Assembly (NCBI GenBank): GCA_951406725.2
Contig: OX597823.1
Coordinates: 114,824,001 to 114,888,000 of the forward strand
Reading direction: 5' to 3'
DNA: 64,000 bases
Source: Octopus vulgaris
Taxonomy: Eukaryota
Part shown: in pieces, positions 49,191-50,418 of the stretch
How the letters are laid out: each line of letters starts with the position of its first letter
Position numbering within the stretch: position 1 is the first letter of the stretch
Translations under genes and position numbers: made by a program
Notes under the pieces: model-generated
Seen by the model: the letters and a program-made list of their open reading frames with translations, nothing else
Databases searched by the model: none
Told to the model about the DNA's origin: nothing

Positions 49191-49449
49191 TATATATATA
49201 TATACTGACTCCGGTATATATATATATATATATATATGTCTTAGTAATACCAGCGATAATAATTATTTTTATTTTATCGCAATTTGATTTGTTTACATAT
49301 TTCTCGATAAATTACGAGCGCCAGGCGATATACCAGAATTCCTAGTTTTGTCGGGACGTTCGGAGTCTGCGCAGTGATATGATTAGTTAGGGAGAGTAAA
49401 TCATTAGAAGCACATGCTTCTAGTGAGTTAGGATCCCAGAAAGACAGGG

Positions 49450-49521
49450 TCTCACTGAAGAATTCTCCCTGAGCAAATAAATTATCTTTATTGCTGAAAA
49501 GAAAGAAACTGCAGTCTGAGA
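49450..49521 (+). ncRNA. Type I hammerhead ribozyme, canonical core (tandem unit 1)
   Basis: TCTCA-CTGAAGA-[stem II TTCT/AGAA plus AGCAAATAAA/TTTATTGCT hairpin]-GAAA-CTGCAG-TC^-TGAGA. Stem I is TCTCA/TGAGA; stem III is the palindrome ACTGCAGT; GUC site ends at 49516. Confidence 0.85.
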
Positions 49522-49846
49522 ATTACCGGTTTAGTAAATGTTTTTTATCTTCATTTCACTTAATTTATCAAGCTTCTGTATTCCTAGCACATATTTCGCC
49601 TTAATGTACTGATATATGAAAAATATATGGCTTGTGTTAGTAATACCAGCGATAATAATTATTTTTATTTTATCGCAATTTGATTTGTTTACATATTTCT
49701 CGATAAATTACGAGCGCCAGGCGATATACCAGAATTCCCTAGTTTTGTCGGGACGTTCGGAGTCTGCGCAGTGATATGATTAGTTAGGGAGAGTAAATCA
49801 TTAGAAGCACATGCTTCTAGTGAGTTAGGATCCCAGAAAGACAGGG

Positions 49847-49918
49847 TCTTACTGAAGAATTCTCCCTGAGCAAATAAATTATCTTTATTGCTGAAAAGAA
49901 AGAAACTGCAGTCTGAGA
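49847..49918 (+). ncRNA. Type I hammerhead ribozyme, canonical core (tandem unit 2)
   Basis: Same as unit 1 except stem I TCTTA/TGAGA (C-G becomes a U-G wobble, so pairing is kept). GUC site ends at 49913. Confidence 0.85.
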
Positions 49919-50082
49919 ATTACCGGTTTAGTAAATGTTTTTATCTTCATTTCACTTAATTTATCAAGCTTCTGTATTCCTAGCACATATTTCGCCTTAA
50001 TGTACTGATATATGAAAAATATATGGCTTGTGTTAGTAATACCAGCGATAATAATTATTTTTATTTTATCGTAATTTGATTT

Positions 50083-50113
<31 letters not shown>

Positions 50114-50418
50114 CCGGAGTAAGCACATAATGAGATGTTATCTGTAGATTTAAATAAATAAATAGTCTTTTCATCTCTGTTTAGAAACGAAATATACTAA
50201 TTTATTGCTGAAATTATTAGATATTTTCAAAACTCATCGTGTTTCTAAACCAGCCAAGTCTTGATTCATACCAAGTGGCAAACCCTCTGTGGCTTCGTCT
50301 TTGAAAAGCAAGAAGTTTGTTTATTCTAGGTCCATAAAGCTTTTCGCACATCAGAAAATGCACCATTTCTTCTTCCAATAGACAGCGACCAGTGGCTATG
50401 AATAATGACTTGGCATAC

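Follow-up and report, generated by a model that had tools for sequence, protein, structure and literature searches.

In plant LTR retrozymes the hammerheads are reported to be blocked (PMC4918200). For most metazoan retrozyme circles, by contrast, predictions show an unobstructed hammerhead, with exceptions among the mussels, and how metazoan circles escape re-cleavage is described as an open question (PMC7229834). A preliminary description of the octopus DNA analysed here took as its premise that viroid and retrozyme circular RNAs block their hammerhead, which according to these reports holds for plant LTR retrozymes but not for most metazoan circles, and it proposed that a three-way junction upstream of a retrozyme hammerhead is a built-in off state that protects the circle. 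In this work we have followed up that proposal in a window of 64,000 nucleotides of Octopus vulgaris contig OX597823.1, in its relatives across the genome and by predicted folding. Our results suggest, with somewhat better than even confidence, that the junction is a predicted alternative fold found only in the youngest subfamily of the element, A1, that it probably arose as a side-effect while a conserved upstream hairpin underwent compensatory changes, and that the RNA is two-state and not kept shut.

The element is a retrozyme insertion of subfamily A1 that occupies 49237..50092 on the forward strand and consists of 2.2 copies of a non-coding unit of 396/397 nt, flanked by two (TA)n tracts (TRF period 396, matches 98%; one ORF of at least 40 aa, with 52 aa, lies within the repeat). 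Copies of this unit at 98–100% identity are present on many chromosomes of the 2.8-Gb genome, with 135 exact matches for an A1 motif and 470 for a motif common to all subfamilies, and pattern searches brought up the sister subfamilies A2, B4, B and C at 70–95% identity. In all subfamilies the insertions lie in (TA)n and have variable 5΄ ends and one common 3΄ end. This near-constant 3΄ end, located in the window at 50040..50092 (+), about 170–175 nt past the last cut site and adjoining a stem-loop, is likely the start of reverse transcription; together, the (TA)n targets and the fixed internal 3΄ end are consistent with Penelope-like mobilisation. Private variants are common to all units of one insertion, as would be the case if a single unit-length RNA had been copied repeatedly or if the source array was homogeneous, and internal junctions are free of indels. 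As in non-LTR retrozymes, the non-coding tandem unit falls within 150–450 nt, each unit has a hammerhead and the copies are dispersed; by analogy, the family is in keeping with a metazoan non-LTR retrozyme mobilised, through internal initiation, by a Penelope-type enzyme. A literature search in which subscription journals were thinly covered returned no paper on this family, nor any in which the ends of retrozyme insertions coincide with the cut site.

Two further observations concern the insertion and its surroundings. It sits in ACTCCGG(TA)nCCGGAGT (49207-49236 and 50086-50135), and 13 uninterrupted sites of this kind, made by the ends of another repeat family, occur elsewhere. Within the unit, the palindromic CTGCGCAG (49364-49375) and TCTCGATAAA (49301-49311) are kept in all subfamilies and may be promoter elements, possibly NRF-1/DRE-like ones.

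The type I hammerhead of unit 1 lies at 49450..49521 (+), with its predicted cut after 49516. It comprises stem I (49450-54/49517-21), the core CUGAAGA (49455-61), stem II (49463-66/49500-03) with a long distal arm in a 43-nt stem II region and an A-A mismatch (49462/49504), GAAA (49505-08), and a 2-bp stem III with a UGCA loop followed by GUC (49514-16). A second copy of junction and hammerhead, at an offset of +397, lies at 49784..49918 (+); its predicted cut is after 49913, and it has a C>T strengthening the pairing P3 described below. We aligned 38 sequences, namely both window units and 36 of 38 sequences chosen from 97 contexts, a duplicate of unit 1 and a shortened row having been dropped. 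Among these relatives the core varies only at N7 (A/T/C/G) and H17, with CUGANGA, GAAA and UH retained; stem I is 100% paired with one two-sided change, stem II also has two-sided changes, and position 10.1/11.1 is an A-A mismatch in A and G-C in most B and C. Assembled contigs from 4 of 24 sequencing runs (X1, X10, X16 and X18) cover the unit, with a 396-nt return joint in X1, and contain variants at N7, H17 and stem I; contigs carry no information on ends, strand or circles. Rfam returned no hammerhead match, either for the whole window at the gathering threshold or for 49200-50150 at E<=10, probably because of the 43-nt stem II, and the hammerhead call therefore rests on core sequence, covariation and genomic insertion ends. 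The weak miRNA matches that Rfam gave in the window are TA repeats and were rejected. Transcripts would self-cleave after 49516, perhaps at a lower rate in A1 and perhaps with help from tertiary contacts or protein.

At the cut site, subfamilies C and B4 have GUA in place of GUC. C copies (L139, L156 and others) are nevertheless young, being about 99% identical, and occur in arrays of 4–5 units. We also came across an unrelated hammerhead repeat family (430 matches; L078-L107) with the same GAAACTGCAGTC stem III, a short stem II with C-A at its base and inverted arms, whose similarity to the present unit is confined to the stem III motif. It ends about 175 nt, often about 230 nt, past the cut site, and the distance from cut to start is thus equal in two unrelated families. 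The idea that its members are Penelope pLTRs was rejected after no convincing ORF was found at 30 loci, and it was treated as another non-coding family.

How does the proposed junction compare with this hammerhead? All the strings reported for it are in place, and they recur 397 nt downstream. The pairing P1 is real and longer than had been claimed, with 11 bp (49387-49397/49462-49472) including two G-U; the GGGA (49390-49393) of its 5΄ strand TTAGGGAGAGT (49387..49397, +) doubles as the base of a conserved long hairpin, and its 3΄ strand ATTCTCCCTGA (49462..49472, +) doubles as the stem II 5΄ strand. The P1 duplex, at -16.3 kcal/mol, is equalled by 1 of 500 dinucleotide shuffles, and the fold of 49385-49475 has z = -5.1. 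The hairpin P2 (49401-49412/49415-49426) forms with a probability of 0.98, not with the 12 bp first ascribed to it, which would leave a 2-nt loop, but with 11 bp and a 4-nt loop. P3, formed by TAGGATCC/GGGTCTCA (49429-49436/49447-49454, within 49429..49454, +) and overlapping the stem I 5΄ strand, is predicted in unit 2 (0.70) and marginal in unit 1 (0.06–0.28 with P1 present, and absent from the centroid); unit 1 has an A-C mismatch there, which is the common allele, and the gain in unit 2 comes from a C>T found in no other A1 copy. The hammerhead-compatible alternative is the conserved long hairpin at 49390..49437 (+), built of the GGGA/TCCC base, TAA/TTA and P2 (49401-49426) on top. The junction had been likened to a type II hammerhead lacking the proper bases, and this is accurate: it reuses the hammerhead's own CUGAAGA and, where a type II motif needs GAAA to follow stem II and UH to precede stem I, it has U-AAA-U and GU, lacking both G12 and UH. 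A decayed or cryptic second hammerhead, of type II, on the same CUGAAGA core would account for the order of the helices, which matches type II; we consider it very improbable and rejected it, with G12 and the UH site missing, GAAA after the P1 strand in 0/38 aligned relatives and P1 unable to form outside A.

In predicted circular A1 monomers (n=8), P1 has a probability of 0.95–0.97 and stem I of at most 0.003, so that, in line with the proposal, stems I and II of these circles have their 5΄ strands taken up by the junction. P1 exceeds 0.5 in 26 of the 30 valid reconstructed A1 circles, a set from which one faulty 319-nt reconstruction was excluded and in which six A1 loci without an anchor were skipped, and it is also predicted to dominate the cleaved linear A1 monomer (0.93–0.97). 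The penalty for the hammerhead fold is 7.8–14.4 kcal/mol in 32 A monomers versus 6.4–8.3 in 17 of 19 B/C monomers, with sister-subfamily circles not fully 'on' either (stem I 0.006–0.53). A monomer fold that prevents the hammerhead is thus predicted for A1 only, and the notion of a hammerhead switched off by a rival fold is supported as a folding prediction for this subfamily but not as a conserved built-in state. The local fold of unit 1 is two-state, with P1 at 0.67 and the hairpin base at 0.27, and P1 ranges from 0.00 to 0.91 across A1 variants; the gap between the two folds is below 1 kcal/mol locally and several kcal/mol in whole circles. Consistent with a contribution of the upstream strand, its removal (RNA begun at 49437 and ended at 49535) is predicted to raise stem I of unit 1 from 0.00–0.22 to 0.76; for RNA begun at 49437 and ended 19 nt past the cut, stem I of unit 2 reaches only 0.08, and stem II is weak in such RNAs (0.13–0.17). 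The P1 3΄ strand is transcribed 40–55 nt ahead of the 3΄ strands of stem II and stem I, so co-transcriptional folding would favour P1. In A1, a smaller share of the hammerheads is probably active on account of the junction.

The junction possibly lowers this share also by taking CCCUG from a pseudoknot. CAGGG (49445..49449, +) can pair with CCCTG (49467-49471), which P1 contests, and the two are a tentative candidate for a stem I–stem II pseudoknot, suggested by a CAGG(G)/(C)CCTG complementarity present in all subfamilies. CAGG/CCTG is paired in 36–38 of the 38 sequences and nearly invariant, and the fifth pair is G-C in 14 and unpaired in 23. These strands also enter a reading that we regard as quite unlikely, in which the junction never matters in the cell and the long hairpin, together with the CAGGG/CCCUG pseudoknot or a bound protein, keeps the hammerhead dominant. 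The purine-rich internal loop of the long hairpin is perhaps underrated by the energy model, the ViennaRNA folds do not score pseudoknots, and the local folds lie less than 1 kcal/mol apart (0.67 versus 0.27); moreover, stem I–stem II pseudoknots are reported to raise hammerhead rates (PMC3088659) and the hammerhead of the Penelope-like element PAc to need its protein for cleavage (PMC11167929). On the other hand, the margin reaches several kcal/mol in whole circles, and a nearly invariant pseudoknot is a candidate only.

Contrary to what a built-in state would lead one to expect, P1 and P3 are not conserved in the sister subfamilies, an outcome that the preliminary description had itself named as counting against its proposal. 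The stem II 5΄ strand is paired upstream with a probability above 0.5 in 24/30 distinct contexts of A1, 0/10 of A2, 1/36 of B and 0/23 of C, so that P1 dominates in 24/30 A1 contexts versus 1/69 from sister subfamilies. A deep X18 contig has two P1 bases changed; its partner strand is on a different contig, so it was left out of the P1 analysis. Across the 38 sequences P1 is 69.5% paired, with two-sided change in 0/11 pairs (P3, 0/8), and the junction covariation score is equalled by 87 of 500 shuffles, whereas the hammerhead-compatible fold has 91% of cells paired and two-sided change in 8/35 pairs, with 0/500 shuffles as good; relatedness inflates these counts, but for both structures alike. 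Over the same sequences the long hairpin (49390-49437) has two-sided change in 7/18 pairs, three in P2, which is common to both folds, and four in the lower part, which excludes P1. The RNAalifold consensus lacks P1 and has two further covarying stem II pairs.

In a 28-row tree, A1 forms one side of a 100/100 branch and is nested among A2 and B4 rows; the tree was midpoint-rooted, and polarity is therefore inferred. The hairpin base reads GAAA/TTTC in B4, GAGA/TCTC in A2 and GGGA/TCCC in A1, and stem II reads GCCT/AGGC in B, GTCT/AGAC in B4 and ATTCT/AGAAA in A. Through these changes the upstream strand came to match TCTCCC of stem II, and P1 was gained stepwise along the B4-A2-A1 line. The last step, an A>G that takes the P1 duplex from -9.4 to -16.3 kcal/mol and completes it in A1, makes up one side of a compensatory hairpin pair. 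P1 may conceivably be under lineage-specific selection in A1; a young selected trait could not yet show covariation.

What do the insertions themselves tell about the template? Among 44 A1 insertions, sampled with a 3΄ A1 motif from the first 100 of 135 matches, 15 have 5΄ ends 0–30 nt past a predicted cut site and none at 31–61, against 5/45 for B/C (p=0.012). With all loci pooled, A1 stops within 30 nt at 6/53 first arrivals, a denominator that includes loci found via upstream motifs, and at 12/27 second arrivals, where the background rate would give 1.8 (p=7e-8); in the next 31 nt the figure is 1/15. In windows chosen post hoc, the 0–15 nt peak comprises 9/24 for A1 versus 2/26 for B/C (p=0.016), and no sharp peak is seen in B/C; over 0–62 nt the figures are 12/27 versus 13/37 (p=0.60), with a weak broad excess in B/C (7.9 expected, p=0.037). 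For these counts 13 rearranged or ambiguous rows were dropped, including L235, a B copy 18 nt from the cut site whose omission flatters the contrast, as were rows below 86% identity or without the usual 3΄ end, and nine ends were hand-corrected from the flanks. The pile-up of A1 ends at the cut site indicates that templates are often open there, and the simplest inference is that many A1 templates are open at the cut site, that the hammerhead still cleaves, and that A1 is no better protected than its junction-free sisters. The sharp A1-only peak ties something A1-specific to template form, though not over 0–62 nt.

Other origins of these ends were weighed. Inheritance from one master copy was rejected, the A1 stops lying at many positions on at least four haplotypes, as was TA microhomology alone, B/C being similarly TA-rich there without a sharp peak. 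A stall of the reverse transcriptase at structure may conceivably explain ends at 15–26 nt, but leaves the boundary at 0 unexplained, with 1/15 ends in the 31 nt beyond it. Examples of the A1 pile-up are L185, L225, L015, L010, L054 and L055, and the 550–575-nt class consists of a unit with a terminal repeat of 175 nt. Another cluster of 5΄ ends lies about 60 nt before the fixed 3΄ end (window 49237; unit phase 109–119) in 10/84 A insertions and 0/90 B/C; the insertion in the window belongs to it, and the cluster may mark either a transcription start or the boundary of a Penelope-type 'tail'.

Within A1, two alleles at 49409, in the P2 apex, differ: A stops at 11/17 second arrivals and C at 0/9 (p=0.002, post hoc). 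Predicted P1 is near 0.95 with either allele in most copies, and 0.66 in one sub-lineage with C, so that predicted P1 does not account for the difference, and something other than the junction decides template form. The A>C change is the state of subfamilies B and C and marks the A1 sub-lineage holding all long arrays (allele loci L022, L027, L242, L255 and L058 versus L010, L185 and L055). At G000:C5:112643500-112654600 (L056-L076), more than 20 A1 units that have private variants in common form an array, a possible source locus.

The insertion ends bear on two readings in which the junction has a function. In the first, which is that of the preliminary description and which we hold to be unlikely, a selected off state keeps the ligated circle from being cut again, as happens in viroids and in the LTR retrozymes of plants. 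It would agree with the dominance of the junction in circular A1 folds (P1 about 0.95), with the 7.8–14.4 kcal/mol that the hammerhead fold costs in A, with the long A1 arrays (6, 7, 10 and more than 20 units), which pass many junctions, and with the precedent in PMC4918200. However, P1 and P3 are not kept in the sisters and show no two-sided change, the covarying fold is the hammerhead-compatible one, and arrays of 4–5 units also come from junction-free C copies. Furthermore, stops at the cut site are no rarer in A1 than in the junction-free sisters, and they are sharper, and the two A1 sub-lineages with the same predicted P1 differ in stopping. We therefore do not favour the junction as a circle-protecting lock. 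In the second reading, improbable to a similar degree, the junction does the opposite job, leaving some hammerheads uncut or keeping cut ends apart and unrejoined, which would give linear templates and the common 550–575-nt insertion. The scarcity of A1 stops at first arrival (6/53 within 30 nt) and their frequency at second (12/27), the clean internal junctions, the predominance of P1 in the cleaved linear monomer (0.93–0.97) and the lack of a sharp peak in A2/B/C, which have no P1, speak for it. Against it, the A1 sub-lineage with A>C in P2 has the same predicted P1 and never stops (0/9), the window widths were picked after the data were seen, and B/C have a weak broader excess (13/37 versus 7.9, p=0.037).

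We favour the by-product reading of the junction, and propose the following course of events for the element. The retrozyme transcript would self-cleave after 49516, and a Penelope-type reverse transcriptase would nick (TA)n, start about 175 nt downstream of the cut site, copy round the unit-length RNA and run off where the RNA is open at the cut site. As to the template, the data are compatible with a closed circle, with a nicked monomer that the enzyme crosses in one jump and with a multimer cut in part. A bolder version, which we think doubtful, is that one retrozyme lineage recently gained a bistable RNA switch and that its template shifted from a closed circle to self-cleaved open RNA, the enzyme crossing the hammerhead junction cleanly once and running off at the second arrival; if so, the genome would record a template shift at single-base resolution, as one unit plus a 175-nt terminal repeat.

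Seen as a lock, the junction follows a familiar theme and lacks conservation; the value of the finding lies in a natural series from free to blocked and in a cut-site footprint. In the series B4, A2, A1, differences of a few bases lead from a predicted free to a predicted blocked hammerhead, so that natural sequences suffice to test the re-cleavage question. Insertion ends piled up at the predicted cut site are evidence, from the genome, for cleaved RNA as a template, and the second-arrival excess constrains how tandem copies are made, the options being the three template forms named above.

Like Penelope-like elements, and PAc of Anolis in particular (PMC11167929; bioRxiv 10.1101/2021.04.23.441226; bioRxiv 10.64898/2026.07.22.740005), the present element has AT-rich/(TA)n targets, partial-tandem insertions and variable 5΄ ends, and its probable fixed internal start of reverse transcription downstream of the hammerhead also matches PAc (PMC11167929). 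Unlike PAc, it has no ORF, and its genomic 5΄ ends cluster at the predicted cut site, whereas no reads with such ends were found for PAc, in which cleavage was not required in vitro (PMC11167929). As in hammerheads with stem I–stem II pseudoknots (Perreault et al. 2011, PMC3088659), a 4–5-bp complementarity, CAGG(G)/(C)CCTG, is found where the stems would meet; in contrast to these, the candidate pairing is nearly invariant and would use the internal loop of stem II.

With plant LTR retrozymes and hammerhead viroids (PMC4918200), the element shares a complementary strand predicted to prevent the hammerhead in the monomer, a likeness in prediction only. The plant block is a long hairpin over most of the type III motif, reported from several species (PMC4918200), whereas the present one is an 11-bp helix that takes one strand in one subfamily and is not conserved beyond it, in an element without LTR, PBS or PPT. 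The element resembles metazoan non-LTR retrozymes (Cervera and de la Pena 2020, PMC7229834), especially the mussel 350–390-nt repeats and the axolotl HHR_Amex2, in its non-coding tandem units of less than 400 nt, its GC content below 50%, its dispersed multimers, and its one type I hammerhead per unit with a 2-bp stem III and a tetraloop; like HHR_Amex2, it has a mismatch at the base of stem II (PMC7229834). It differs from them in the 43-nt arm with an internal loop in stem II and in the predicted self-pairing block, a feature said to be absent from most metazoan circles, though not from some of mussels (PMC7229834). The folds described for mussel circles (PMC7229834) may bear on how unusual the A1 block is.
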